Of a stretch of 64,000 nucleotides of DNA, positions 12,325 through 27,515 are shown in pieces; positions within the stretch are counted from its first letter, which is position 1, and every line of letters begins with the position of its first letter. The notes under the pieces were generated by a model. The model did not search any database. It was not told the origin of the DNA and was given only the letters and a program-made list of their open reading frames with translations. The position numbers and the translations under genes were made by a program. Origin of the DNA: Myxococcota bacterium (GTDB lineage: Bacteria; Myxococcota_A; UBA796; CAJQPC01); the NCBI GenBank assembly GCA_036229005.1, contig JAZAMN010000052.1, positions 96,001-160,000 on the forward strand. The letters run 5' to 3'.

Positions 12325-12368
12325 GGGGCGCAGTGTACTCCCTGGCCGCAAGCGCTACCCTTGCCGCC

Positions 12369-15300
12369 GTGGAACCCCTGAGCGCCTACCGCGACCTGCG
12401 GCCCTTCGCTGGGCAGCACCGCAGCCTGCTGATGCGGGGGCGGACCCGGGCGGACGACCGGGCGGTGGTGATCAAGCAGGCCCAGGGCCACGCCGCACCT
12501 CGCCTGCAGAGAGAAGGTGCACTGCTGACGCGCGCCCAGGGGCCAGGGGTTGTGGAGGTGGTGGACTGGCGCCCAGAGCTGGGCCTCCTGGTCCTGGAGG
12601 ATCTGGGCCCGCGCAACCTGGCGGCCCGCCTGGGCGAAGGCCCGATGGAGCTGGGGGAGACCCTGCGGCTGGTGCAGCGGCTGGCCGGGACCCTGGCGAC
12701 CCTGCACCAGGCACAGGTGCTGCACCTGGACCTGCACCCCGAGAACGTGGTGCTGCGCGCGGACCAGCCGGTGCTGGTGGACCTGTCCAGCGGTGCGCGC
12801 ATTGGCGAGACCCCGCAGCCCCGCCGCGACGGCCCCCAGTGGCACCTGGCCCCCGAGCAGCAGCCCGGCAGCGGGCGCGAGGTGGGTCCCAAGACGGACC
12901 TGCACGGGCTGGGGGTGCTGATGTGGTGCTCCCTGGTGGGCGTGGGCCCGCCCATCGACGGGATCCACGCGCCCAGCCTGCGCTCGCTGGCGCCCCACCT
13001 GCCGGATGCGGTCCACCACCTGCTGGAGGCGCTGCTGCACCCGGCCCCGGAGGGTCGCCCCGAGAGCGCCGCGGCCGTGGCCTTGCAGGTCGCCAAGCTG
13101 CGCGCCCCCGGACTGCCACCGGAGCTGGCCAGCCTGCACCACTCCGAGGCGCGGGAGACCCTGGCGCGGGCGCTCGCTGCGGCCGACATCGGCGACATGT
13201 CGGTGGTGTACCTCAAGGGCGGCCCTGGCGCGGGCAAGTACCCCCTGGTGCGGCAGCTCACCGCGATGCCGCCTGCGCGGCGAGGGGTGGTGGCGATCGG
13301 GCGCTGCTCTCCCCTGCGCGACGGAGGCCCCTACGGCCCCTGGCTCGCGGCGCTGCGCATGGGGATCCACTCCGCGATGGAGGGGAACAACGCGGCGGAG
13401 AACCTGCAGGCGGTGCGCGAGGCGATCGGCCCGGACGCCGGCCTGCTCCTGCGCATGGTCCCCGAGCTGGAGGACCTGCTGGGGCTCGATGCCCCCCGGG
13501 CCCTGGGCGAGCCCAGCGGAGAGCAGGCCCTGGCCAACCTGGTGCGGCGGGTGCTGCAGGCGCTCTGCAGGCCCGGCGCCCCCCTGGTGCTGGTCCTGGA
13601 GGAGGCCCAGTGGCTGGACCAGGCCAGCGTCCGGCTGCTGGAGAGCCTGGCCAGCCCCCCGCGCCACAGCGGGCTGCTGCTGCTGCTCACCTACCAGCGG
13701 GAAGCCGTCTTGGCGGGCGACCCCCTGGACCGGGCGCTGCAGGCCCTGGAGAGCCGGCGCCCCCAGCGCATCCGCCTGTCTCCCATGACCGAACAGCAGC
13801 TCCTGCTGCTCTGCCGACAGCACCTGGATCTGGAGGACGGAGAAGCCCGCGCCCTGGCCAGCGTGCTACTGCGGGCCAGCGGCGGGCTCCCGGGGAAGGC
13901 GCTGCGGGCGCTCCGCCAGCTCCACAGCAGCGGCGCCCTGCGGCAGGACTTGTGGCAGGGGAGCTGGACCTGGGACGTGAAACGCCTGGCGCAGATCGAC
14001 GATCGCCTGGTGCCCGAGAAGCTGGGCCTGCTGGAGCTCGCCGACCTGCCCCCCGCCGCCGCCACGCTGATCGGGCAGGCCTCGTGCATGGGCCCCGAGG
14101 GGGAGATCCAGGCGCTGGCGCGGGTGTCTGGCAGCTCAATGGCGGAGCTGCGCCCCTTCCTGGAGGCCGCCGCCGAGGCCCGCCTGATCTACCTGAACGG
14201 TAGGAGCTGGCGCATGGCCGACCAGGAGCTGCAGCAGGTCGCCCGCGAGCGCTTGCCGCAGGCGCTGCGCCTCCAGACGCACCGGCGCATCGCCCGGCTG
14301 CACCTGGAGAAGGGCGACGTGGAGCACTTCTTTGTGGGGGTGGACCACCTGAACCTGAGCGCGGGGCCCCAGGAGACGGACGCCGAGCGCCAGGAGCGTG
14401 CCCACCTGAACGTGGAGGCGGCCCGCCGGGCGCGGCACGGCTCGGCCTACGACGCGTCCTTTGCCTACACGGCCGCAGCGCTGGCCGCCGCGCCCTCCCA
14501 CTGGAGCGCCCGAAACCGCCTGGAGCTCTACAAGGAGGCCGCGGTCACCGCCCACCTGTCGGGCGACCAGGCCCGGGCCCAGCGCATGCTGGAGCAGGCC
14601 ACCGCCCACGCGCAGGGGGCGCTGGAGCGGGCGGTGCTGGCCGAGATCCGGGTCCACACCCTGCTCACCAGCGGCAAGCTGGCCGAGGCCCGCCAGGTGG
14701 GGCTGAGCGCCCTCGCCGAGTTCGAGCTGAGCCCGGAGCAGCAACCCCAGGTCCCCTCGCCGCCTCAGCTCTCGCGCCTGATCACCCAGCCCCCGGAGCT
14801 GGGGCAGCTCACCAAGGTCCGGAACGCCCTGCTGGCCCGGATGATCCAGCTCGGCTGGTACCAGGATCCCGCGCTGGTCCGCTGGGCGGCCGGGCAGCTC
14901 TGCGCGCTCGCCGTCCAGGAGGGCCCCACCGCCGAGACCGCCGTCGGCATGCTCGCCGTGGCCCTGGGACACAGCCTGAGCGGCTCGCCCAAGCTGGGGC
15001 TGCAGCTCGGAGAGGACGCCCGCTCCCTGGCCTTCGCCGTCGACCCCGACGACCCCTGGGTGCCCTACGTGCAGGCGGTCCTGGCCGCCCGGCTGGAGGC
15101 CCAGGTCCACAGCGCCCCCCAGGTGCTGGAGCGCCTGAGCGCAGCGATCTCCCGCCTGGAGACCCTGGGGCGCCACCACGACGCGCTGGTGTTCGCCGTC
15201 CCTCGCGCTCTGCTGGCCCTGCAGGCCGGACAGCCCCTGGCCGAGGTCGAGCAGCGCTGCGAGCAGGACCTGGAGCAGGCCCGCCGCCTCCAGCACCTGG

Positions 15301-17513
15301 GCGCGCTCGACCGGCTGCAGGTGCTCCGCCAGCTCTGCCGGGCCCTGGCCGGCAAGACCCGCCCGGGGCGCCTGGACGACGCCGGCTTCACCGAGTCCGA
15401 CCTGCTCGCCGCCGCCGCCACCGACATCGAGACGCGGGCGCTGCTGGAGGCCAGCGCCCTGTGGCTGGCGGTCCTGGCCGACGACCCCCTGAGCGCCCGA
15501 ATCCGCGCCGACGCAGCCACCGAGGCCTGGGGGCTGCTCGGCCCCAGCGCGATCGCCCCGCTACTGCACACCCTGCGGGGGATCGCCCGCCTGATGGGGC
15601 GCCCTGGCGCCGAGAGCATCGCCCAGGCCGAGGCCGACCAGCGCTGGCTGGACAGCGCCGGCTGGTCCCTCGCGGCCCTGCTGCTCCGCGCCGAGCTCCA
15701 GCGCGCCCAGGGGCAGCAGCTCTCGGCCCTGGGCAGCTACGATGCGAGCATCCAGGGTGCCCGGGAGCTGGGGCCCGCCTGGGTGCTGCTCGCCGCCTCC
15801 CGGGCCGCCAGCTTCCACGGCGCCTCTGGCCGCGCCCAGATCGCGGAGAGCTATCGGAGCGTGGAGCGGCGGGCGCAGGCCGCCTGGACCGAGGAGACCT
15901 CGCCGGCACCCCGTCGCGCAGAGGGGGTCGCGCCCCAAGATGCCAAGGGGGTGTTGGGCAACCTGCTGCACGCCTTCACGTTGGCCTCCCTCGCCCAAGG
16001 ATGCGCGCTGGTCCTCTGCCAGCCCGAAGGACCGGTCCTGCAGCTCCGCCACGGCCCCGAGGGCCTGACCACCCACCAGGAGCCCGTCACCGACTCCAGC
16101 CCCGTGAGCGCCGCGGCTGTTCGCGTCGTGCTGGCCACCCAGCGCCCCCTCCAGTCCGGCGCCTGCAGCTCCGACCCCCGCCTGCAGGGCGACGACTGGC
16201 TCCGCCGCTCCGGCACCCGCAGCCTGCTGGCCTGGCCCCTGCGCGCCGACGGTCGGATCCTGGGCGTCGTGCTGCTGGAGAGCCGCGTCCCCGCCTCCCT
16301 GGTGACGCCGCCGCCCCTGCTGCACCTGCTCCGAAAGCAGCTCATCGCCACCCTGCTCCAGCAGGAGAAGCTCACCGAGCTGCAGCTCAGCGCCCGCAGC
16401 CAACCCACCCACACCACCGCCCAGGAGACCACCGAGCTGCGCTTCCAGGACCTGTTCGCCGGCGCCCCCGACCCCATGCTGCTCTGCGACGACGACGGGC
16501 GGGTCGTCCTGGCCAACGCCCCCGCCGAGCGCGCCTTGGGCCTGCTGCACCTCAAGCACCGCCGCCTCGGCCAGCTCCTGCACGCCCCCGAGGCCATCGC
16601 GCGCGCCACCCCGGAGCTGATGACCCTCGGCGAGGTCCACGGCCTGGAGCTCACCCTCCCCTCCGGCCCCTACCTGGCCTCGGCCACGCGCCTGCACATG
16701 GGCGGCCGCGCGCCTCTGAGCGTGTGGGTGCTGCGCAGCGTCGCCCCCCTGGTCCAGGCCACCCGCGCCCTGGAGCAGCGCATCGCGGAGCGCACCGAAC
16801 AGCTCACCCGCTCCAACGCCGAGCTGGAGTCCTCCAACGCCGAGCTCCGCCAGTTCGCCACCCTGGCCTCCCACGACCTCAAGTCCCCCGTCCGCACCGT
16901 CTCCAGCTACCTGAGCCTGCTCCAGCGCCGCCACAGCGACCAGCTCGACGAGAAGGGCCGCAGCTACCTGGAGCGCAGCGTCGCCGGCACCTTGCGCATG
17001 CAGACCCTGATCGACGACCTGCTCAGCTTCTCCCAGGTCGGCCAGGACCGCCGCCCCTTTGTGCGCGTCGAGCTCAGCGAGGTCCTGGGCACCGCCATCG
17101 AGAACCTCCAGGGCGAGATCCTGGCCACCGGCGCCCGCGTCGAGCTCCCCAGCCTGCCCGCCGTCCCCGGCAACCCCTCCCGCCTGGGCCAGCTCTTCCA
17201 GAACCTGCTGGGCAACGCCCTCAAGTACCGGCGCGAGGGCGTCGCTCCCCACGTGCGCGTACAGGCCCACGCCCGCGGCGGCCTGCTGCACCTGCGCATC
17301 ATCGACAACGGCATCGGCATCCCCGCCGCCTCCCAGCACGTCGTGTTCAACATCTTCAAGCGCCTGCACGGCAAGGGCAGCTACTCCGGCAACGGCATCG
17401 GGCTGGCCATCTGCCGCAAGATCGTGGAGCTGCACGGCGGCCGCATCTGGGTCGAGTCCCACGACGGCCCCGGCACCACCTTCGCCCTCACGCTGCCCAC
17501 CTACGCCGAGTGA
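12369..17513 (+). CDS. Multidomain Ser/Thr kinase-like / AAA (STAND) / TPR-like / GAF / PAS / histidine kinase sensor
   Basis: VVIK and HLDLHPEN (kinase); GGPGAGK and LVLEEAQW (AAA_16); GAF (RSLLAWPL..GVVLLE); PAS; ASHDLKSP, NLLGNALKY, DNGIGI, GNGIGLAIC. Start GTG 12369 inferred from a -10 motif (ORF track 12333). Confidence 0.88.
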   Translation: MEPLSAYRDLRPFAGQHRSLLMRGRTRADDRAVVIKQAQGHAAPRLQREGALLTRAQGPGVVEVVDWRPELGLLVLEDLGPRNLAARLGEGPMELGETLRLVQRLAGTLATLHQAQVLHLDLHPENVVLRADQPVLVDLSSGARIGETPQPRRDGPQWHLAPEQQPGSGREVGPKTDLHGLGVLMWCSLVGVGPPIDGIHAPSLRSLAPHLPDAVHHLLEALLHPAPEGRPESAAAVALQVAKLRAPGLPPELASLHHSEARETLARALAAADIGDMSVVYLKGGPGAGKYPLVRQLTAMPPARRGVVAIGRCSPLRDGGPYGPWLAALRMGIHSAMEGNNAAENLQAVREAIGPDAGLLLRMVPELEDLLGLDAPRALGEPSGEQALANLVRRVLQALCRPGAPLVLVLEEAQWLDQASVRLLESLASPPRHSGLLLLLTYQREAVLAGDPLDRALQALESRRPQRIRLSPMTEQQLLLLCRQHLDLEDGEARALASVLLRASGGLPGKALRALRQLHSSGALRQDLWQGSWTWDVKRLAQIDDRLVPEKLGLLELADLPPAAATLIGQASCMGPEGEIQALARVSGSSMAELRPFLEAAAEARLIYLNGRSWRMADQELQQVARERLPQALRLQTHRRIARLHLEKGDVEHFFVGVDHLNLSAGPQETDAERQERAHLNVEAARRARHGSAYDASFAYTAAALAAAPSHWSARNRLELYKEAAVTAHLSGDQARAQRMLEQATAHAQGALERAVLAEIRVHTLLTSGKLAEARQVGLSALAEFELSPEQQPQVPSPPQLSRLITQPPELGQLTKVRNALLARMIQLGWYQDPALVRWAAGQLCALAVQEGPTAETAVGMLAVALGHSLSGSPKLGLQLGEDARSLAFAVDPDDPWVPYVQAVLAARLEAQVHSAPQVLERLSAAISRLETLGRHHDALVFAVPRALLALQAGQPLAEVEQRCEQDLEQARRLQHLGALDRLQVLRQLCRALAGKTRPGRLDDAGFTESDLLAAAATDIETRALLEASALWLAVLADDPLSARIRADAATEAWGLLGPSAIAPLLHTLRGIARLMGRPGAESIAQAEADQRWLDSAGWSLAALLLRAELQRAQGQQLSALGSYDASIQGARELGPAWVLLAASRAASFHGASGRAQIAESYRSVERRAQAAWTEETSPAPRRAEGVAPQDAKGVLGNLLHAFTLASLAQGCALVLCQPEGPVLQLRHGPEGLTTHQEPVTDSSPVSAAAVRVVLATQRPLQSGACSSDPRLQGDDWLRRSGTRSLLAWPLRADGRILGVVLLESRVPASLVTPPPLLHLLRKQLIATLLQQEKLTELQLSARSQPTHTTAQETTELRFQDLFAGAPDPMLLCDDDGRVVLANAPAERALGLLHLKHRRLGQLLHAPEAIARATPELMTLGEVHGLELTLPSGPYLASATRLHMGGRAPLSVWVLRSVAPLVQATRALEQRIAERTEQLTRSNAELESSNAELRQFATLASHDLKSPVRTVSSYLSLLQRRHSDQLDEKGRSYLERSVAGTLRMQTLIDDLLSFSQVGQDRRPFVRVELSEVLGTAIENLQGEILATGARVELPSLPAVPGNPSRLGQLFQNLLGNALKYRREGVAPHVRVQAHARGGLLHLRIIDNGIGIPAASQHVVFNIFKRLHGKGSYSGNGIGLAICRKIVELHGGRIWVESHDGPGTTFALTLPTYAE

Positions 17514-17523
17514 CCCCGCGCCC

Positions 17524-19083
17524 ATGAGCACCCCCGCCCGCGAGGCCCTCGACGCCCTCATCGAGCAGTTCTCGGAGCGCTCCGCCGCCATCCGCGAGCT
17601 CGTACAGAACAGCCTGGACGCCGGCGCCGGCAGCGTGGAGCTCCGCATCGAGCAGCAGGGCCGCAAGCTCCGGATCCACCTGGTCGACGACGGCCACGGC
17701 ATGGACCGCGCCTGCATCCAGGACAACCTGCTGACCCTCTTCCGCTCCAACAAAGAGGACGACCAGACCAAGATCGGCCGCTTCGGCGTCGGCTTCGTCT
17801 CCATCTTCGCCCTGGAGCCCGAGCTGGTCGTGGTGGACACCGGGCGCGACGGCCTGCACCACCGCGTCGTGTTCGACGCCAAGCAGCGCTTCACCCTGGC
17901 CCAGGTCGACGAGCCCTTCGAGGGCACCGCCGTCACCCTCACCCTCCGGAGCTGGGGAAAGCCCGCCGGTGAGCTCGCCCAGGAGCTGCGCGCCGCCCTC
18001 CACTACTGGTGCCGCTACGCCCGCGCCGAGATCTGGTGCGAGGCCCAGGGCGAGGGTTGGGAGGGCTGGCCCGAAGAGCGCGTCCAGGCCCCCTGGGAGG
18101 TCGACAGCCCCCTGCGGGTACAGGTGGAGGAGGACGGGCTGAGGGCCTCTCTAGGCTACCACGCCCACCGCCTGGCCCCCGTGGGCTACTACAACCGCGG
18201 ACTGACGCTCCTGGAGGCAGACGAGGACACACTGCCCGGGGTCAGCTTCCGGGTCGAGGCCGGGGCGCTGGAGCACACCATCACCCGCGACAACGTGCTG
18301 CGCGACGGCCACTGGGAGCTGGTGATCCAGCGCCTGCGCCGCGCCGAACAGGAGCAGCTCCGCCCCGCCCTGCTGGAGGCCCTGCGCGCCGCCATCCAGG
18401 CCCAGGACTGGGAGCGACACCGCGCGCTCCTGGCCGTCTGCCCCCACGTCCCCCTCCCCGACGACGAGCCTCTGCTGCGCCGCGCCGGCGGCGGTCTCGC
18501 GGCCCTGGGCGCCGTCCCCAAGCGCTTTCTGGGCCCGCGCCGCGTCCTGTGGGCCCCCGGCCCCAGCCCCCTGGTCGAGGCCCTGGAGCAGGACGGCCAC
18601 CTGGTCCTGCTGGGCCCCCCCGGCGAGCGCCCCGAGTTCGCCCTGCTGCACGCCGTCTACCCCGAGGTGCTCAGCGAAGAGGCCCCGGCCACCTACCTCT
18701 TTCCTCGCCTGGCCCCGGATCCCCCCTGGCTGGCGTCGCTGGAGTCCACGCTCAAGCGGTGGGCCGATCAGTCCCCCAGGGGCCACACAGCCCCTCCCTC
18801 CCCCGGCCGCCGGGAGCGCGTCCACGCAGCCCACTTCCAGGGCGGCGGCACCCAGCTCGAGGGCCGCCTGATCCTGCGACAGCGCGCCCCCGGCAGCCTG
18901 GAGGCCTGGGACGGCCGCCCCGACAAGGGGAGCTGGCTCATCAACCTGGATCACCCCCTGGTCGCCGAGGCCGCTGGGCTCTCCCCCGAGCGCGCCGGCG
19001 TGGGGCTCGCGGTGGCGGCCGTGCGGGCGCTGGGCTCCGGTGCGCCGCTGCCCGCCGATCTGCTGGACGGGGTGGCCCCATGA
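17524..19083 (+). CDS. Hsp90/HtpG-like GHKL ATPase (compact, 519 aa)
   Basis: All four Bergerat motifs: IRELVQNSLDA, DDGHGM, KIGRFGVGF, GTAVTL. M-domain-like LEHTITRDNVLRD; C-terminal LINLDHPLV. Confidence 0.85.
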   Translation: MSTPAREALDALIEQFSERSAAIRELVQNSLDAGAGSVELRIEQQGRKLRIHLVDDGHGMDRACIQDNLLTLFRSNKEDDQTKIGRFGVGFVSIFALEPELVVVDTGRDGLHHRVVFDAKQRFTLAQVDEPFEGTAVTLTLRSWGKPAGELAQELRAALHYWCRYARAEIWCEAQGEGWEGWPEERVQAPWEVDSPLRVQVEEDGLRASLGYHAHRLAPVGYYNRGLTLLEADEDTLPGVSFRVEAGALEHTITRDNVLRDGHWELVIQRLRRAEQEQLRPALLEALRAAIQAQDWERHRALLAVCPHVPLPDDEPLLRRAGGGLAALGAVPKRFLGPRRVLWAPGPSPLVEALEQDGHLVLLGPPGERPEFALLHAVYPEVLSEEAPATYLFPRLAPDPPWLASLESTLKRWADQSPRGHTAPPSPGRRERVHAAHFQGGGTQLEGRLILRQRAPGSLEAWDGRPDKGSWLINLDHPLVAEAAGLSPERAGVGLAVAAVRALGSGAPLPADLLDGVAP

Positions 19084-22000
19084 GCACCCGGGAGCAGGCC
19101 CTGGAGGACGCCGAGGTCCTGCTGGAGGGCGAGTTCAAGCTGGACCGCGCCCGCGCCATGGACAAGCTGGCGCGCTTCCAGCTCGAGGAGCCCCACCGCT
19201 ACGTCCTGGAGCTGCTCGCTGCCGCCATCCGCGGGGGCGCCCAGTTCGTGGAGATCCTCAACGACGCCGACGACTTCGTGATCGAGTGGGAGGGCGACAC
19301 CCCCACCCCCGCCGAGCTGGAGCAGCTCTTTGAGCACATCTTCCTGCGCGAGGGCGACGACCGCAGCCGCATGCTCCAGCACCTGGCCCAGGGCCTCCAC
19401 GCCGCCCTGGCCCTCAAGCCCCGGTGGCTGCACTTCGAGCGCCCCGGCGCCCGCTTCGAGATGGACAGCAGCGGCGCCCTCCACGGCAGCCCCCACGACC
19501 GCAGCAGCGGCACCCGCATCCACCTCCGGGAGCGCCTGAGCCTGGACATGCTCCGGGAGTGGCTGGGCACCCCGCGCGAGACCTGGCTGCTCCAGGAGTT
19601 CGCCGCCCACGCCCCCATCCCGCTGATCCTCAACGGCGAGGCCATGGAGCGCGCCCGCCCCCCCGCCGACCAGCGCCCCCGCGCGCAACAGGGCCACAGC
19701 TGCATCTGGCTGGAGGTCAGCGGCGCCAGCCCCGGGGTGGCCCTGATCCGCGACGGCCTGCGCATCGAGCACCTGCCCATCCAGCTCGGCCCCCTCCAGC
19801 TCACCGGGTGGTGGCACGCCGACGCGCTGCGCCTGAACGCCTCTCGGTCCAAGGTCGCGCGGCGTGCGGATCTACGCCCCCTGCGTACCCACCTCCTCAA
19901 GTCCATCCTGCCCGCGCTTGAGCAGCACCTGGACCACCCGCGAGGTCACTTCGAGCGCGCCCAGATCCAGCTCGCCGCCCTGGCCCTGGTAGCGGAGCTT
20001 GGCCGCAAGCACCTGGATTCACTCGGGGATCGCCCCCTCTTCCTGGACCTGACCGGCCGCAGCTTCTCCCTGGAGGCGCTGGCCAGTCACAAGAAGATCT
20101 GGCTCACCAGCCGCCCGGGGCTCGCCTCCCGGCTGGAGCGCGCGCCCCAGTTCCTGGAGGGCGAGGGCCAGGACCCCATGGACCGCAACAGCCTGCAGCT
20201 CGCGGCCCTCCAGGCGCGCTTCCCCGGCCGCCTCATCAACGCCGACGCCGCCCTGCGCGACAACCAGGAGGGCGAGGCCCGCCGCTCCGCCCTGCTGCGC
20301 GCCGACCCCGAGCTGCCCTTCACCCGCGGGCTGCCCGAGCACTTCTCCGGCCCCGGCGGCCTGATCGGCTCCGCCTCGGTGCTGGGCGGCGGCAGCGTCG
20401 CCCGGGTGGAGTTCTGGGTGGACGAGCTCCCCGTCGAGACCCTGGCCGTCAACCTGCCCGCCGGCCTGGGGCTGCGGGTGGGGGGCCCCGGGCTGCGGGC
20501 CGACCGCCGCTTCGAGAAGGTGGAGCGCGACGCCGCCTTCAAGGCCGCCCAGGAGCTGGCCCTGGAGCAGGGCCGCCAGTACCTGCTGCACCTCGCCGAG
20601 CACCACGCCGCCGACCCCGACGTGGCCGCCCTGCTGCGCGACTGGCTGGTGCGCCTGGCCCCCCGGGACGCCCTCGACGCCCTGGACCCCGCGCTGGCCC
20701 AGGCCCCCCTGTTCACCGACGGGCTGGGGCAGCGCCGCAGCGTCCGCGAGCTCGCGGCCTGGCTCAAGGCGGACGGCCGCATCGAGATCGCCGCCGGGGA
20801 GCCCGCCGGCGCCCCCTTCCCCCGGACCCTCGCCACCGACGACAGCGCCCGCCGCACCCTGCGCGCCTGCTTCGGACACCGGGCCCTGCTGGACCTCAGC
20901 CAGCGCATCGAGGACCACCGCCACGCCCAGCTCCGCCGCGCCGCCGCCCTGCCGCGCCCCATGCGCCTGGAGCGCCACCTGATCGCCCGCGTGCCGGTGG
21001 CCGCCGAGGGCCTCTACGGCGAGCTCGGCCTGTCCCCGGTGGAGGACCGCGCCTTCACCGAGGTCCAGCTCTTCCGCTCCGGCGTGGACCTGGGCACCCT
21101 GCTGGTGGACCTGGGCGTGCCCGGCACCCTGGCCATCCTGAGCTGGGAGGGCCTGGAGCCCGACGCCCGCTGGGAGGCCCCCGCCCACCCCGAGCGCGAC
21201 CGTCGCACCCTCGCGCGCCTGCTCAAGCCCTTCGTGGCCCCCCTGCTCCAGGGCGTCCTGGGCGCCCTGCCCCTGCCCAGCGAGCGCATGCCCGCCTGGG
21301 TCGGGAACGTCCTGGACAGCAGCAGCGCCGCCATCGAGCCCCTGCTCCAGGCCCCCCTCTTCCTGGACGCCAGCGGAGGCACCTGGAGCGTCGTGGAGCT
21401 GGAGGCCCGCGCCCTGGGCGCCCGCATCCCCGTCCTGGGCCCCGGCAGCCCCCGGGTGCCCGATCGCCTGCGCCACGCCCTGCTCCTGGACGGCCCCCGC
21501 TACGCCGCGCTGCGCCGGCGCATGGCCGAGAGCCTCTGGGACGCCTCCCTGTGGCTGGAGCAGTGGCACCAGGCGCGCACCGCCTTCTTCGAGCGCGCCC
21601 CCCTGCCCCCCTGGCGAGAAGACAGCGACCCCGGCCTGCGGCGCTTCAGCCACCAGGGCCTGGAGCTGCAGGTCCTCCCCGCGGACGCCCCCAGCCACAC
21701 CCAGGGCCTCAAGCTCAGCCTGCTCTTCGAGGGCCGCCCCCTCCAGACCCTGGTGCTCCCCAGCGCCATCCCGGCCAGAGCCCGCCTCAGCGGCCCCGCC
21801 CTGCTCCCCGACGACCGCTACGCCGGCACCCAGGACCCCGAGAACCTCAGCCTCCTGCGGAGCTGGTGGGCCGCCGACTGCCTGGAGCAGTGCATCCAGG
21901 ACTGGCTCCCCGACGCGCGCCTTCCCCGCGCCCAGCGCCTGCTCCTGCTGGGTCAGGTCCTGGACCTCCAGCCCGCCCCCCCAGGCCTCGCCGCCCTCAA

Positions 22001-24368
22001 GGCGGCCCCCCTGATCAACACCCCGCGCGGGGACCGGGCCTCCTTCGAGCAGCTCCTGCAGGCCAGCGCCAACAGCGCCCTCCTGCTCATCAGCCCCCGC
22101 CTCGCCGCGCTCGTCCCCGACGACGACCGCCTCTGGGTGATCCCCGAGCCCAGCCTCCGGCCCCTGCTCGCCCGCCTTCCCTCGGAGCCCCTCGACGGCG
22201 ATCTGGAGCTCTCCAGGCTGGACGAGGGCCGCCGCAACCGCGCCCGCTCCCGCATCACGCCCCTCTGGCAGCCCGGCCCCTGGGAGGCCGCCGCCCGCTT
22301 CACCGCCGGACCCGCCGCGCTCTTTGTCTGCATCGCCCCCCACCCCAGGGACACCCAGCGCATCTGGCGCGTCGAGGGCCGCAGCGTCCAGGCCGACCGC
22401 GTCCCGGAGTGGCCGCCCGAGCTCCAGGTCCACGTGGAGCACCCAGAGCTCCGCGCCAACACCGCGTTCAACGCCGTCGTGGACGCCCCCCTGCTGGCCG
22501 AGCTGCGCACCCTCAGCGACCAGGCCGTCGCCGCCCTGCTGGCCGCCCTCTGCGGCGTCGCCGACCCCCGCCTCTCCGAGCTCCAGGTCCCCCGCCCCGA
22601 GGCCATCCCCCGCACCCTGCTGCGCTACGGCGCCTCCCGCCCGCGGGTCGACGCTCTCTGGGGCGAGCACCCCCTGGTCAGCGACAGCCAGAGCCGCCCC
22701 CTCAGCGCCCGCGACCTGCGCACCCTGGGCCGCCGCGGCATCCCCGTCATCTCCTCCGGCCGCATGGGCCCCGGCCTGGACCCCGAGCGCCCGCTCATCC
22801 CCGCCACCCAGGCCCTGCGCGACCTGCTGGAGCGCTGGGGACGCCTCCAGGACGCCGAGTCCGACTGGCAGGCCGCCCGCGAGCGCGACCGCCGCATGGC
22901 CATGGCCCCCGTCCAGCGCAGCCCGGCCCAGAACGCCCCGTGGGTCCACCCGCTGAGCCCGCCTCACCAGGGCTTCGTCCAGGCCGGGGTCCCAGGGGCT
23001 GTGTTGGAGCTGCTGCACCAGGGTCGACCGCTCTGCACCCTGGACTGCGCGGGCCCCGTGCCGCTCTCCGGCGCAGTCGAGGACACCCGCATCCTGCCCA
23101 ACCTCCGCCACGACGCCCCCGAGCAGGGCCCCGCCCTCACCGCCCTCCAGCAGCACCTCACCGAGCTGAGCCGGCAGGCCCTCCAGGCCCTGCTGGTGGC
23201 CCCCGACGCCCTGCCCCTGAGCCAGTGGGTGCCCATCCTCCAGCGCGCCCTCCCCCGCAACCGGGACCGCCGCGGCAAGGGCCGCAACCCCGAGCTGGCC
23301 ACCCTGCCCCTCTTCCCCACCGGCGACGGCGAGCGCCTTAGCCTGGCCCAGCTCCACGACATGCCCGGCGAGCCCCGCTGGGTGACCGCCGACCACGCCA
23401 CCCCCAGCCTGGAGCCCGAGCACCCCTTCCTGGTCGTGCCCAGCGGCCTGATGCTCCCCCTGATCGAGTGGCTGGGCGGCCACGACGCCCAGTCGGAGGC
23501 CCGCGCGGAGGCCGCCCGCCTGCGCAGCCGCCGCGCCAAGGGCCTGGAGGGCAGCGACAAGATGCTGCACAGCCTCCAGCGCAGCCTGATCCCCGGCGAG
23601 CTCCACCTGGGCCTGCGCCGCGGCTTCGGCCAGGGCTGGGTGGACGTGCGCTGCGACGGCATCCCTGTCACCCGCCTGGACTTCCACCTGCCCGGCCTCA
23701 GCGGCGCCCTCGAGGTCGGCCGCGAGCACCTGACCCGCGGCCTGCGGGACCTGCGGGAGCCCGAGCCCTTCCGCCACCAGATCACGGGGGCCTACGCCGA
23801 GCTGATCGCCGCCGCCGCCCCCCGCCTGCGCGAGGGCGGCCTGCTGCGCTGGGAGGTCACCCGCCTGCTCTCCACCCTCAAGAAGGGCCCCGCCGCCAAG
23901 GCCTGGCGCGCCGCCCCCCTGCTGGATGGCCCCAGCGGCCCCTTGAGCCCCGAGCAGGCCGCCAAGGGCTGCGTCTGGTCCCCCCAGCCCATCGACGGCG
24001 CCGTCTGCGTCTACGACAGCCGGGCCAACCGCGGCTTCCTGGAGGCCCTGGGCATCCGCCCCCTGGAGCCCGTCGCCTGGGCCGCCCTCCAGGAGCGCCG
24101 CCGCTCCAAGGCCGCCAAGGCCGCCACCTCCGTGGACAGCGGCTGGCAGAAGCGGGTGGTCAAGCGCAGCCTGGCCCAGCTCTCCGCCGGCCTGCGCCTG
24201 GACCGCGCCCTGCGCAAGCGCGTGCTGGGCCGCAGCATCCCCACCCAGCTCGACAGCGAGCCCAAGCTCCTGCGCTTCACCTGGGAGGCCCTGGATCGCG
24301 AGCTCGCCCGCGCCGGACGCTGGCAGGACTGCGGCCTGGTCGCGGTCCGCGCCGTCGGCCTCCTATAG
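19080..24368 (+). CDS. Large protein (1762 aa): degenerate GHKL N-domain plus seven tandem ~210-aa repeats
   Basis: ATG overlaps the upstream stop (ATGA). GEFKLDRARAMDKLARFQLEEPHRYVLEL N-terminus; PL(F)xDxxGxxxS motif recurs every ~610-670 nt; GC-rich third-position codon usage throughout. Confidence 0.8.
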   Translation: MSTREQALEDAEVLLEGEFKLDRARAMDKLARFQLEEPHRYVLELLAAAIRGGAQFVEILNDADDFVIEWEGDTPTPAELEQLFEHIFLREGDDRSRMLQHLAQGLHAALALKPRWLHFERPGARFEMDSSGALHGSPHDRSSGTRIHLRERLSLDMLREWLGTPRETWLLQEFAAHAPIPLILNGEAMERARPPADQRPRAQQGHSCIWLEVSGASPGVALIRDGLRIEHLPIQLGPLQLTGWWHADALRLNASRSKVARRADLRPLRTHLLKSILPALEQHLDHPRGHFERAQIQLAALALVAELGRKHLDSLGDRPLFLDLTGRSFSLEALASHKKIWLTSRPGLASRLERAPQFLEGEGQDPMDRNSLQLAALQARFPGRLINADAALRDNQEGEARRSALLRADPELPFTRGLPEHFSGPGGLIGSASVLGGGSVARVEFWVDELPVETLAVNLPAGLGLRVGGPGLRADRRFEKVERDAAFKAAQELALEQGRQYLLHLAEHHAADPDVAALLRDWLVRLAPRDALDALDPALAQAPLFTDGLGQRRSVRELAAWLKADGRIEIAAGEPAGAPFPRTLATDDSARRTLRACFGHRALLDLSQRIEDHRHAQLRRAAALPRPMRLERHLIARVPVAAEGLYGELGLSPVEDRAFTEVQLFRSGVDLGTLLVDLGVPGTLAILSWEGLEPDARWEAPAHPERDRRTLARLLKPFVAPLLQGVLGALPLPSERMPAWVGNVLDSSSAAIEPLLQAPLFLDASGGTWSVVELEARALGARIPVLGPGSPRVPDRLRHALLLDGPRYAALRRRMAESLWDASLWLEQWHQARTAFFERAPLPPWREDSDPGLRRFSHQGLELQVLPADAPSHTQGLKLSLLFEGRPLQTLVLPSAIPARARLSGPALLPDDRYAGTQDPENLSLLRSWWAADCLEQCIQDWLPDARLPRAQRLLLLGQVLDLQPAPPGLAALKAAPLINTPRGDRASFEQLLQASANSALLLISPRLAALVPDDDRLWVIPEPSLRPLLARLPSEPLDGDLELSRLDEGRRNRARSRITPLWQPGPWEAAARFTAGPAALFVCIAPHPRDTQRIWRVEGRSVQADRVPEWPPELQVHVEHPELRANTAFNAVVDAPLLAELRTLSDQAVAALLAALCGVADPRLSELQVPRPEAIPRTLLRYGASRPRVDALWGEHPLVSDSQSRPLSARDLRTLGRRGIPVISSGRMGPGLDPERPLIPATQALRDLLERWGRLQDAESDWQAARERDRRMAMAPVQRSPAQNAPWVHPLSPPHQGFVQAGVPGAVLELLHQGRPLCTLDCAGPVPLSGAVEDTRILPNLRHDAPEQGPALTALQQHLTELSRQALQALLVAPDALPLSQWVPILQRALPRNRDRRGKGRNPELATLPLFPTGDGERLSLAQLHDMPGEPRWVTADHATPSLEPEHPFLVVPSGLMLPLIEWLGGHDAQSEARAEAARLRSRRAKGLEGSDKMLHSLQRSLIPGELHLGLRRGFGQGWVDVRCDGIPVTRLDFHLPGLSGALEVGREHLTRGLRDLREPEPFRHQITGAYAELIAAAAPRLREGGLLRWEVTRLLSTLKKGPAAKAWRAAPLLDGPSGPLSPEQAAKGCVWSPQPIDGAVCVYDSRANRGFLEALGIRPLEPVAWAALQERRRSKAAKAATSVDSGWQKRVVKRSLAQLSAGLRLDRALRKRVLGRSIPTQLDSEPKLLRFTWEALDRELARAGRWQDCGLVAVRAVGLL

Positions 24369-25031: not shown

Positions 25032-25934
25032 CTAACTGCCCATCTCCGGGGGAGGAGGGGCCGATCCGTAGCGGTGCCAGATGGGCCCACCGCTCCCGCT
25101 CTCTGGCGCCGCGGGCCCCGGAAGGATCTGCCGCACATACGAGGACACACCGACCCCCTGGTGCCAGTGGCGGGGGTAGCCCAGCGCGACCTCTTCAAAG
25201 CGCACCCCATCCCGCCAGTCCGTCGCGCGCATGTGCAGGTGCCCGCTGACCACCACCTGGGCGCGGAAGCGGCGGTGCCACTGCTCGGTCAGCCGCGTCC
25301 CGCACCAGGGCGTGAAGCGCGCCACCCGCTGGGGGAGCCGCACCAGATCCCGCCGCAGCGGCCAGTGGCCCACCAGCAAGGTGCGGGCCTCCGGGGGCAG
25401 CTCGGCCTCCATGCGCCGCTCGGTGCTCTGGACCCGCGCCGCACACCAGCTCTGCAGGTCCGGGTAGGGGTCCGGGTGCCAGAGCCGCTCGTCCGTGCTG
25501 ACGATGTGCTCCTCCCAGGCCCACTTCCTGGCCTGATCGGGGTCCATCCCCTGGGGCCCCATGCTGTAGTCGATGCCCACAAACAGCGGCACCAGCCACA
25601 GCCCCGGGTGCCCCTCGATCGGCCGGTAGGGGCACTCCGGCGTGATCACACCGCGCGCCTGGCACAGCCGCACAAGGCGGTGGTAGCGGGCGCGGCCACG
25701 CAGCTTGGACTCGCAGCTCCGGTGGGTCCACAGCTCGTGGTTCCCGGGCACCCAGACCACCGCGCCGAAGCGCTCCTGGAACACATCCAGGCAGTAGCGG
25801 AGCTGCTCCAGCGTCTCGCCGATGTCCCCCACCAGCAGCACCATGTCCTGCGGATGGGAGGGCAGCTCCAGCAGCGCCTCGCGGTTGGCCTTGTAGCCGA
25901 TGTGGAGGTCCGAGATGGCCCAGATGCGCGTCAT
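25032..25934 (-). CDS. Calcineurin-like metallophosphoesterase, PptH (Rv2795c)-like
   Basis: IWAISDLH, VGDI, VPGNHELWT, PWCGT, SGHLH, DGVRFEEVALGYPRHW. Confidence 0.88.
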   Translation of the reverse strand: MTRIWAISDLHIGYKANREALLELPSHPQDMVLLVGDIGETLEQLRYCLDVFQERFGAVVWVPGNHELWTHRSCESKLRGRARYHRLVRLCQARGVITPECPYRPIEGHPGLWLVPLFVGIDYSMGPQGMDPDQARKWAWEEHIVSTDERLWHPDPYPDLQSWCAARVQSTERRMEAELPPEARTLLVGHWPLRRDLVRLPQRVARFTPWCGTRLTEQWHRRFRAQVVVSGHLHMRATDWRDGVRFEEVALGYPRHWHQGVGVSSYVRQILPGPAAPESGSGGPIWHRYGSAPPPPEMGS

Positions 25935-25987: not shown

Positions 25988-26245
25988 CTACTTCACCTCG
26001 TTCACCGACGCGTCCATCTCCGCGTTGAAGTCGGTCCGCAGGGTGATCAGCGGCGTGAACCCGGGGCGCTCGTACTCATCGAGCATGATCAGCTCCGGGC
26101 CGGCCAGCACACCCTCCAGCTCCAGCGCGGTGAAGTCGATGTGGGTCTCGGCCTTGTAGGTCACCTGGGGCTCATCGTCCTGGGCCAGCGCAGGGCTGGC
26201 GACGGCGGCGGCGAGGAGGGAGAGGGCGAGCAGCTTGCGGGTCAT
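25988..26245 (-). CDS. Small secreted CglF/GltF-like gliding motility protein
   Basis: Signal peptide, then YKAETHIDFTALELEGVLAGPE...FTPLITLRTDFNAEMDASV. Matches the recalled CglF pattern (IDF.D..VEGEL.KPE...F.SLI.VR.NF..E..KS). SD GGAG present. Confidence 0.75.
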   Translation of the reverse strand: MTRKLLALSLLAAAVASPALAQDDEPQVTYKAETHIDFTALELEGVLAGPELIMLDEYERPGFTPLITLRTDFNAEMDASVNEVK

Positions 26246-26269
26246 GGGTCACTCCGGTTTGCATCCACC

Positions 26270-26296
26270 TGACACCCGGGGCGCCGGGGCGGTTCC
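26270..26296 (-). promoter_or_regulatory. Candidate ECF-sigma promoter for the cglF-like gene
   Basis: Minus strand GGAACC-N16-TGTCA, ending 24 nt upstream of the start codon. Confidence 0.4.
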
Positions 26297-26351
26297 TGGA
26301 ATCTCCCATCGACGAGGTGCGAACAGCGGACCCTGGCGCTACGTCCACCCC

Positions 26352-27515
26352 ATGTCCACCCCCCGCCGCTGGTTGGCCCGCGTCGCGCTCACCGCGCTCA
26401 GCACCGCGTTGGCTCTGGGCGCCGTCGAGGTCATCGCCCGCCAGCTCGCGCCCCCAGACAGCTTCCGGCTGCAGGAGGCGGAGCAGCGCGACGCGGAGTG
26501 CCTGAGCCCCATGGACGGCCCGGGCTACGCGTGGAAGCCAGGCGCCTGCGGCGCCAACGAGCAGGGCTTCCTGGGACCCGCCGTGGAGACCTCGCCGGCG
26601 GACGGCACGCTGCGCATTGTGCTGCTGGGGGACTCCATCTCAGGAGATGGGCGCTATGGCCGGTGGACCGCAGAGCTCCTCTCCCAAGCCCTGGGCCGCC
26701 CGGTCGAGGTGCTGAACTTTGGGGTCTTTGGCTACAACCCCGACAACGAGCTCGGCATGTGGGAGGCGCTGGCCAGCCGATACAACCCCCACCTGGTGGT
26801 GCATCAGTTCTGCGTGAACGACTACCAGCACACGCCGGTGTTCTACCGCCAGGGCGGCCGGCTGATGTCCGCGGACAACAAGAACGGGCAGCTCCAAGGG
26901 GTGCCCATCGCGCTGTATCAACGCTCGGCCCTGGTGCGCTGGGCCGTGGGGGTGCGGGCGGTGCGACAGAACCGGGTGTCCGTGGCCCCCTTCGACGAGC
27001 GCGCGCAGGGGGTGACCGTGGCCATGACGGCGCTGGACACCAAACTGCGACAGGCCGGAGTCCCCTGGGTGAGCCTGCGCTTCCCCTACCTGGCCGAGCG
27101 CGACGACTGGCGGCCCGAAGACCTGCAGGCCGAGACACATTTTGGTGCACTGCTGGCGGAGCTGGGTGTCCCAGACATCGATCTGGGCCCCCGCTACGCG
27201 GCCTTCGGCCCCGACCGCCTGCTTCAGGACAGCGCGCCAGCGGAGCTTGAGGCCCTGCAGTCCCAGGGCACGCTGGAGGGCCTCAGCCCCCAGGAGGCCG
27301 CCGAGGTTCTTGTATCAGCAAAGCACTACTTCCCGCCCATCGCGCCAAACGGTCAGGTGGATCGCATCCACCCCAACGGCTTCGGCCACTACCTCGCGGC
27401 GCGGGCGCTGACGGACTGGCTGGCCCCCCGCGTGGACACCCTGGCGCCAGGGCTCGCCCCCTACGTGGCCCCCGAAAAGAGCGCGCCCAGAACCCGGACC
27501 CCCGCCTCCCGCTGA
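26352..27515 (+). CDS. SGNH/GDSL hydrolase family protein, membrane anchored
   Basis: LLGDSI (block I), NFGVFGY (II), FCVND (III), DRIHPN (V); N-terminal TM helix. Confidence 0.85.
   Translation: MSTPRRWLARVALTALSTALALGAVEVIARQLAPPDSFRLQEAEQRDAECLSPMDGPGYAWKPGACGANEQGFLGPAVETSPADGTLRIVLLGDSISGDGRYGRWTAELLSQALGRPVEVLNFGVFGYNPDNELGMWEALASRYNPHLVVHQFCVNDYQHTPVFYRQGGRLMSADNKNGQLQGVPIALYQRSALVRWAVGVRAVRQNRVSVAPFDERAQGVTVAMTALDTKLRQAGVPWVSLRFPYLAERDDWRPEDLQAETHFGALLAELGVPDIDLGPRYAAFGPDRLLQDSAPAELEALQSQGTLEGLSPQEAAEVLVSAKHYFPPIAPNGQVDRIHPNGFGHYLAARALTDWLAPRVDTLAPGLAPYVAPEKSAPRTRTPASR

Follow-up and report, generated by a model that had tools for sequence, protein, structure and literature searches.

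Can the working parts of an Hsp90-type clamp be divided between two genes, one keeping the ATP site and the other not? This question is raised by two adjacent genes, here called A and B, in a 64,000-nt stretch of a contig from a Myxococcota bacterium (GenBank assembly GCA_036229005.1, contig JAZAMN010000052.1, positions 96,001 to 160,000 of the forward strand), which we refer to as the window. A first-pass annotation made from the sequence had read the pair as an active and an inactive Hsp90-like paralogue that together form a dedicated chaperone or defence module. The two halves of the Hsp90 homodimer act asymmetrically, which has been studied with engineered heterodimers. To our knowledge, known Hsp90s are homodimers, and we know of few co-factors or clients of bacterial Hsp90s.

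Anatomy of genes A and B

To give an overview, the features of the locus and of associated loci are collected in Table 1. The motifs that the first-pass annotation had listed for A were all recovered in the translated reading frame, namely RELVQN (E25, N29), DDGHG (D55, G57, G59), GRFGVG and GT (134-135) of the GHKL head, the Arg loop LEHTITRDNV (R255), PLLRRAGGGLAAL and the C-terminal LINLDHPLV. GHKL motifs I-IV, including the catalytic Glu and the Mg-binding Asn, are present in all 114 A homologues taken from the loci, and Q15, F16, R24, E25, N29, D32, D55, G57, G59, G85, G88, G90, G134, T135, T252 and R255 are invariant among them. An AlphaFold2 model of A (built from 87 sequences; pLDDT 92.6) matched Hsp90, HtpG and TRAP1 along its full length in Foldseek (E about 1e-20 to 3e-20) and gave VIA Z scores of 19-21 against Hsp90s, with MORC2 at 17. 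Model, fold matches and the invariant R255 together indicate an N-M-C architecture with the middle-domain Arg.

Table 1. Coordinates of the features discussed. Positions are those of the window unless a genome, contig or locus is named.
Feature	Position	Strand	Description
Hybrid kinase	12333-17513	+	~1715-1726 aa; Ser/Thr kinase, AAA_16, GAF, PAS, HisKA, HATPase
Gene A	17524..19083	+	519 aa; Hsp90-fold, intact ATPase motifs, no N-terminal strap; N ~1-185, M 186-395, C 396-519
ATGA start/stop overlap A/B	19080..19083	+	
Gene B	19080..24368	+	1762 aa; pseudo-ATPase paralogue of A
B pseudo-N domain	19080..19652	+	aa 1-191
Seven tandem Hsp90 middle-domain-like units	19641..24185	+	found by profile comparison
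B tail	24186..24368	+	~60 aa; no detectable match to an Hsp90-type C domain in the window's clade
Calcineurin-like phosphoesterase	25032-25934	-	downstream of B; ordinary
GDSL-like lipase	26235-27515	+	downstream of B; ordinary
CC-X of the window's A-B system	G000:C52:85087-86881 (L134:8588-10382)	-	outside the window
Second CC-X + A-B system	G000:C16:90861-100457 (L049)		complete; another subfamily; B of 1066 aa
AAA+ gene, examples	L066:6229-7932, L105:3263-4882, L128:4991-6628 and others		

A thus resembles the Hsp90 family (HtpG, Hsp82/Hsc82, TRAP1, GRP94) in its fold, its full set of catalytic residues and its middle-domain Arg, and it also carries the Hsp90 C-domain motif LN..HP. It differs from the family in its shorter chain, in a shorter lid (30 versus 38 residues from DxGxG to GxFGxG), in the absence of the strap, and in a presumed partner whose gene is separate and whose product is ATP-dead and repeats the middle domain. 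We take the elements called strap and lid to be those that contribute to N-terminal dimerisation of Hsp90, in which the strap is swapped from one subunit to the other; a literature search for the interface residues of that dimerisation retrieved no paper. In the model, residue 2 of A is aligned to residue 9 of Hsc82 (Z about 20), and the strap position is aromatic in just 4 of the 114 homologues, whose N-termini, with script-called start codons, are often longer (median of 19 residues ahead of QF). As the first-pass annotation had held, A is, judging by profile scores, not the housekeeping HtpG: it scores 35.2 bits against HtpG (NF003555; cut-off 371) and 36.1 against the HSP90 family protein model (NF010683; cut-off 455), and a canonical HtpG, 25.5% identical to A over 196 residues, is encoded on another contig (C8) of the same genome.

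Profile comparison of B with A by hhalign revealed similarity across the N domain and the first middle domain (probability 97.5, E 6e-12, 318 columns; 96.5 when the two N domains are compared alone), and by this measure B is a paralogue of A that is predicted to have lost its ATP site. The motif-I Asn, DxGxG and GxFGxG are kept in none of 116 B proteins; 83 retain the catalytic Glu and 20 the middle-domain Arg. Best kept are F19 (112 of 116), A26 (116 of 116) and K29 (110 of 116), such that the pseudo-N domain conserves a strap, G17-x-F19, and helix 1 with A26 and K29; counting back from the catalytic Glu, F19 coincides without gaps with F9 of the HtpG encoded by the same genome. The earlier reading of the pair as an active protein and its inactive paralogue is therefore borne out by the loss of these motifs in B and their retention in A. 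GC3 values of 0.94 (A) and 0.97 (B) mark both as real genes.

The repeats that had been seen in B correspond to seven units of ~220 aa (residues 188-417, 411-634, 627-855, 851-1073, 1064-1297, 1283-1494 and 1492-1702), with pairwise hhalign probabilities of 96.6-99.7 and of 78-96 against the middle domain of A. They are not visible in a self-BLAST of B, a direct comparison of B with the PDB reached no better than E 0.39 (to HtpG fragments), and Pfam and NCBIfam recognise the ATPase head alone in A and nothing in B. In other B proteins, a unit profile of the window's clade, which misses divergent middle units, counts 0-7 units. B proteins of other clades end in a segment resembling the C domain of A (probability 86; motif in 38 of 72), and in the window's clade the motif occurs in 1 of 34 and the profile finds no match, 32 of the 116 B rows having been dropped before these motif counts (contig-end cuts, frameshifted, short or duplicate). 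With no Hsp90-type C (dimerisation) domain detectable in the B proteins of the window's clade, it is doubtful that they use the customary C-terminal hinge.

Two families of GHL ATPases, sacsin and Tiamat/NO VEIN, invite comparison. Like A, they combine an Hsp90-like head with a transducer, and the head of A passes the cut-offs of the sacsin N-terminal domain (PF25794, 36.4 over 32.8; NF047352, 54 over 50). Sacsin also has a repeated Hsp90-like module; according to the accessible portion of PMC9880540, its repeats include the ATPase head, whereas those of B comprise the middle domain only. Tiamat, as far as the available text describes it, has TPR-like folds and, at the C-terminal end of the same chain, a nuclease (10.64898/2026.09.30.754977), and neither such folds nor a nuclease were detected in A or B. 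In place of the DUF3684 region and C-terminal nuclease or effector that characterise the Tiamat/sacsin type, A ends in an Hsp90-type C domain.

Linkage, spread and co-variation of the pair

The overlap of the A stop with the B start in an ATGA at 19080 was confirmed, and the same -4 overlap is found in 25 of 32 relatives' loci in which both genes were called; translational coupling of A and B through it is likely. The MST start shared by the two proteins, to which the first-pass annotation had also pointed, is chance: it is not conserved in homologues, and the second codon of B begins with adenine because the overlap forces it. No sigma-70 promoter or useful terminator was found in our search. 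Conservation of the gene neighbourhood, which had been suggested as a check, is pronounced: B occurs in 29 of 61 related genomes at 37 places, 36 of them right behind an A and the 37th abutting a contig end. The genomes compared here and below are kin rather than independent observations, and many are incomplete.

A genome scan with a single-protein query returned no match; a profile scan for A over 185,579 species confirmed at least 380 stretches, the best 80 of which were analysed. Among these 80, carriers comprise myxobacteria (Nannocystis, Plesiocystis, Enhygromyxa, Polyangium, Archangium), Vulcanimicrobiota/Eremiobacterota, Elusimicrobia and Bradymonadales; three loci repeat those of the relatives' set, and five end inside A, leaving 75 informative. 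B lies directly downstream of A in 67 of these 75 (again from the best 80 of at least 380), one locus has three B upstream, and seven have no adjacent B. When five of the seven (L075, L080, L082, L087, L114; four genomes) were searched genome-wide, B was found elsewhere in all five cases. B can also be arrayed, with five copies around one A in L115 and three each in L096 and L119. Tandem A-B-A-B arrangements were seen in L084 and L128, one B of L084 being split into two frames. A second, divergent A-B pair lies on contig C16 of the window's own genome.

Distance matrices of A and B are correlated (r = 0.84 over 95 pairs). An inter-protein covariation analysis of the same 95 pairs (effective number 75) yielded no coherent interface: the top APC pairs were mostly explained by clade, and against within-clade shuffles the best z was 4.8 with shuffle maxima of 2.8-4.1 (shuffles left in). 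One pattern, in which 90 of 95 pairs place a basic residue at A71 in the lid or else at B20 in the strap, with three switches between the two on the tree, was picked post hoc from 90,000 pairs, has p = 0.17 at the finest clade split and is to be taken as a lead only.

In some genomes B-type heads have multiplied at dispersed sites. G126 contains 37 B-type matches beside 5 A and one X (see below), G121 has 27 beside 4 full A and one X, G129 has 12 (plus one cross-match to A) beside 8 A and one X, and G227 has 9. Of 35 B-like frames of G126 aligned from 31 regions (L169-L199), some of them short or split, 34 have G17 and 32 have F19, and most have replaced the catalytic Glu. Domain scans of 29 orphan B-type proteins identified TPR ends in two, a zinc ribbon in one and a weak propeller in one; C-terminal hydrophobic segments were picked up in five by a crude hydropathy scan (background, 8 of 116 operonic B).

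What is missing in A is what is kept in B, and the reverse. Read most simply, this is a 1:1 clamp whose ATP turnover would fall to A alone; a heterocomplex of A and B is, in our estimate, probable. A different arrangement, in which A works as a homodimer and B regulates it, either as a loosely bound scaffold or by poisoning or parking A in the manner of a decoy or inhibitor, would suit the presence of all three domains, N, M and C, in A itself, the lack of a recognisable C domain in window-type B, and the large excess of B-type copies over A in some genomes. With its own C domain, the modelled A might indeed form a homodimer with ATP-driven chaperone activity. However, the strap is absent from A and conserved by B alone, and the recurrent -4 overlap suits a 1:1 complex, which leaves a purely regulatory B improbable.

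The hybrid kinase upstream suggests another role, that of a chaperone for this Ser/Thr kinase-AAA-GAF-PAS-histidine kinase, for which eukaryotic Hsp90-kinase pairs provide a parallel. Its gene has the orientation of A, with 10 bases between its end and A, and occupies the same place in two relatives (L021 and L022), but these are the nearest tree neighbours of A and the link is missing at the other loci. We consequently rejected the kinase as client, with a very slight residual chance, because the synteny is local only.

Partner genes CC, X and an AAA+ ATPase

Clustering of script-called genes around A-B loci revealed two neighbour families, CC (helical/coiled-coil, 320-380 aa) and X (alpha/beta, 280-360 aa; 343 clusters at 50% identity), neither of which has a Pfam or PDB sequence match. 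CC-X often stands directly ahead of A, and in 8 loci of the best 80 of at least 380 an AAA+ gene follows X. The order CC-X-(AAA+)-A-B was seen in loci from several phyla, and CC-X-AAA+ in four of five Eremiobacterota-type genomes. In the window's genome, the CC-X of the second pair is 3.5 kb from that A-B.

The association holds at the level of whole genomes. Among the 61 relatives, X was found in 30, namely the 29 with B and one partial match. In a class-level set of 110 genomes, A is present in 57 and X in 59, and all 57 A-bearing genomes carry X; in a second family (71 genomes), A and X occur in the same 14; and X is present in 18 of 19 further, hand-picked A-bearing genomes. As exceptions, 2 of 59 genomes carry X but no A, and 1 of 5 has A but no X. 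The CC profile, searched against the same 61 relatives, matched 24 of the 29 that bear B, the misses falling in the window's divergent clade, and divergent CC copies score weakly (E 3e-6 in the window's own genome); by these profile searches the universality of CC appears less firm than that of X. A search of the 61 relatives for the AAA+ gene, which included no positive genome, found none. Judged by co-inheritance, CC and X belong to the A-B system, which would then have four genes, or five with the AAA+ gene in other lineages. The two-gene module of the first-pass annotation accordingly stands as a linked pair and falls short as a complete system. One protein of 508 aa (P0353) joins part of CC to X, as a natural fusion or a frameshift artefact.

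The strictness with which X is co-inherited suggests a dedicated role and argues against a general stress function as a backup of HtpG, with the arm of B as an extra holdase surface. Such a function would make use of the full Hsp90 fold of A, and Hsp90 middle domains do bind clients, but a canonical HtpG is already present and no heat-shock gene recurs among the neighbours; we regard it as highly improbable.

For X, a confident model (pLDDT 95.4) gave no Foldseek match at E <= 0.001, a best VIA Z of 4.7 to T-fold-like sheets and no Atlas match; the absence of structural matches to this model does not show that its fold is new. Most CC members have, by eye, a basic amphipathic stretch at residues ~75-95. 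Kinship of CC with TelA (PF05816) is a weak lead: TelA appeared at rank 15 in the Atlas (score 0.88; family on 10% of members), and hhalign gave probabilities of 2-4 against 1 and 5 TelA sequences, with a reversed control at 0.14. CC showed no PspA or Snf7 match in Pfam or in the PDB sequence search. The optional fifth gene exceeds the PF00004 cut-off in 4 of 4 tested proteins, keeps the Walker A G-x-PGCGKT, has YWPDID as Walker B, and finds its best PDB matches in NVL, p97 and Rix7 (E 4e-6; classical clade). Its family (~540 aa) has a long helical N-terminal part and was here seen only right after X.

A possible asymmetric clamp and its alternatives

We propose that A and B form an asymmetric Hsp90-type clamp dedicated to remodelling one client, for which CC and its partner X are the likeliest candidates, and assign this reading a probability of about 0.48; given the heterocomplex, CC/X would be a reasonably plausible client. 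The strap and helix 1 of B would close the N domain of A, which would hydrolyse ATP well only with B. The lending of a strap by B has a precedent in engineered Hsp82 heterodimers, in which, as the accessible portion of the study reports, an ATP-dead lidless subunit stimulates its wild-type partner (PMC5018835). Counting against the proposal, heterodimers with an ATP-binding-dead subunit fail to support yeast growth in the same study. The engineered heterodimers, in which wild type is paired with a lidless, D79N or E33A subunit (PMC5018835), are like the proposed A-B complex in joining one active and one ATP-dead subunit. They are laboratory constructs, however, whereas the asymmetry of A-B would be natural and its dead subunit bears an arm. 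This arm (~1-7 middle units; TPR, zinc-ribbon or hydrophobic tails in orphans) may set the target or place of the clamp, of which the inactive half B would be the exchangeable part. CC might be a membrane-associated scaffold that is assembled or dismantled by the clamp, helped by the AAA+ ATPase where present.

Two observations shape this view of the client. X and CC come and go with A-B even when unlinked, which makes them a likely client or co-factor, and an optional classical AAA+ gene beside a coiled-coil gene suggests assembly or disassembly of a polymer. Co-inheritance as such gives no client identity, and the lack of a C domain in window-clade B and the position of CC-X in the window's own genome (~27 kb from A and in the opposite orientation) count against a clamp with CC/X as client.

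Operons of Snf7/PspA with classical AAA+ genes (ESCRT-III/Vps4-like) likewise combine a coiled-coil gene with an adjacent AAA+ gene of the classical clade and, in the available text of their description, have been proposed to act in membrane remodelling (10.1101/2020.09.24.301986). They differ from the present system in that the sequence searches gave no PspA or Snf7 match for CC and the AAA+ gene is optional here. The MoxR-vWA ternary conflict systems, as set out in the accessible part of PMC7159879, are similar in their chaperone-type NTPase core and their inactive and variable components, and dissimilar in that the A-B system has no MoxR, vWA or STAND core component. Within the main-text portions available, HSP90 is never mentioned in 10.1101/2020.09.24.301986 and has a count of 0 in PMC7159879. 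PADLOC 2023, which had been suggested as a check of whether the pair is already catalogued, held no full-length model match for the system components and recognised a generic ATPase head only. No description of the pair or system was found in the literature searched, supplements being outside that search. The A-B pair and its four- to five-gene system are real and conserved, and apparently undescribed.

A bolder and doubtful extension is a new class of machine, in which a strapless catalytic subunit of a natural heterodimeric Hsp90 would be licensed by a repertoire of pseudo-ATPases (up to ~37 per genome) and, together with an AAA+ ATPase and a new-fold protein, would build and dismantle a coiled-coil polymer bound to the membrane, in the service of predation or immunity. 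Here, the arms would comprise middle domains, numbering from one to seven or more, or tails of the TPR, zinc-ribbon or membrane type, and the class would cover myxobacteria, Bradymonadales, Eremiobacterota and Elusimicrobiota. Myxobacteria and Bradymonadales are predators. Moreover, one marine Eremiobacterota family has been suggested to be predatory in the accessible text of PMC9259500. The predatory lifestyle of many carriers is a hint only as to the role of the system. If the proposed clamp is correct, strap and ATP site are split between two genes, and Hsp90 asymmetry would become directly testable in a natural pair, with Nannocystis, Plesiocystis and Enhygromyxa as cultivated carriers. 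Co-inheritance names CC, X and the AAA+ ATPase as candidate co-factors or clients for a bacterial Hsp90, and a repertoire of adaptors is suggested by the way in which the inactive half has expanded.

The main rival, which we do not favour and consider unlikely, is a conflict or anti-phage system, in which B proteins would serve as sensors, the A-B clamp as a threshold switch, and CC (with X) as a membrane-acting effector released or polymerised upon infection. This would account for the patchy presence of the system (57 of 110 and 14 of 71 genomes) and for a constant core with a variable, expanded and inactive component, as the accessible text of PMC7159879 describes for NTP-dependent conflict systems. 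GHKL ATPases also serve in Tiamat, according to the available part of 10.64898/2026.09.30.754977, and its TmtA models match the head of A weakly (E 1e-11, aa 9-103 only). On the other hand, nuclease, TIR, sirtuin and other effector domains are absent from 43 operonic and 29 orphan B-type proteins, and searches of 72,556 plasmid records and 50,697 phage records found no copy. PADLOC matched 10 of 149 flanking genes, mostly by generic domains and with about three defence-like, in a scan of those of 168 candidates that had not been scanned earlier, cut to 520 aa. The GC3 of A and B is host-like, their trees follow large taxa, and neighbouring genes are kept within genera. Of the dedicated chaperone or defence module first put forward, the dedicated role is suggested by the co-inheritance of X, and defence finds little support in gene context.

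As a further observation, a strapless B-like pseudo-ATPase with a TPR end was seen facing the A-B pair at three loci (L085:14624-16300, L099:8194-9873 and L104:14723-16402 (-)).
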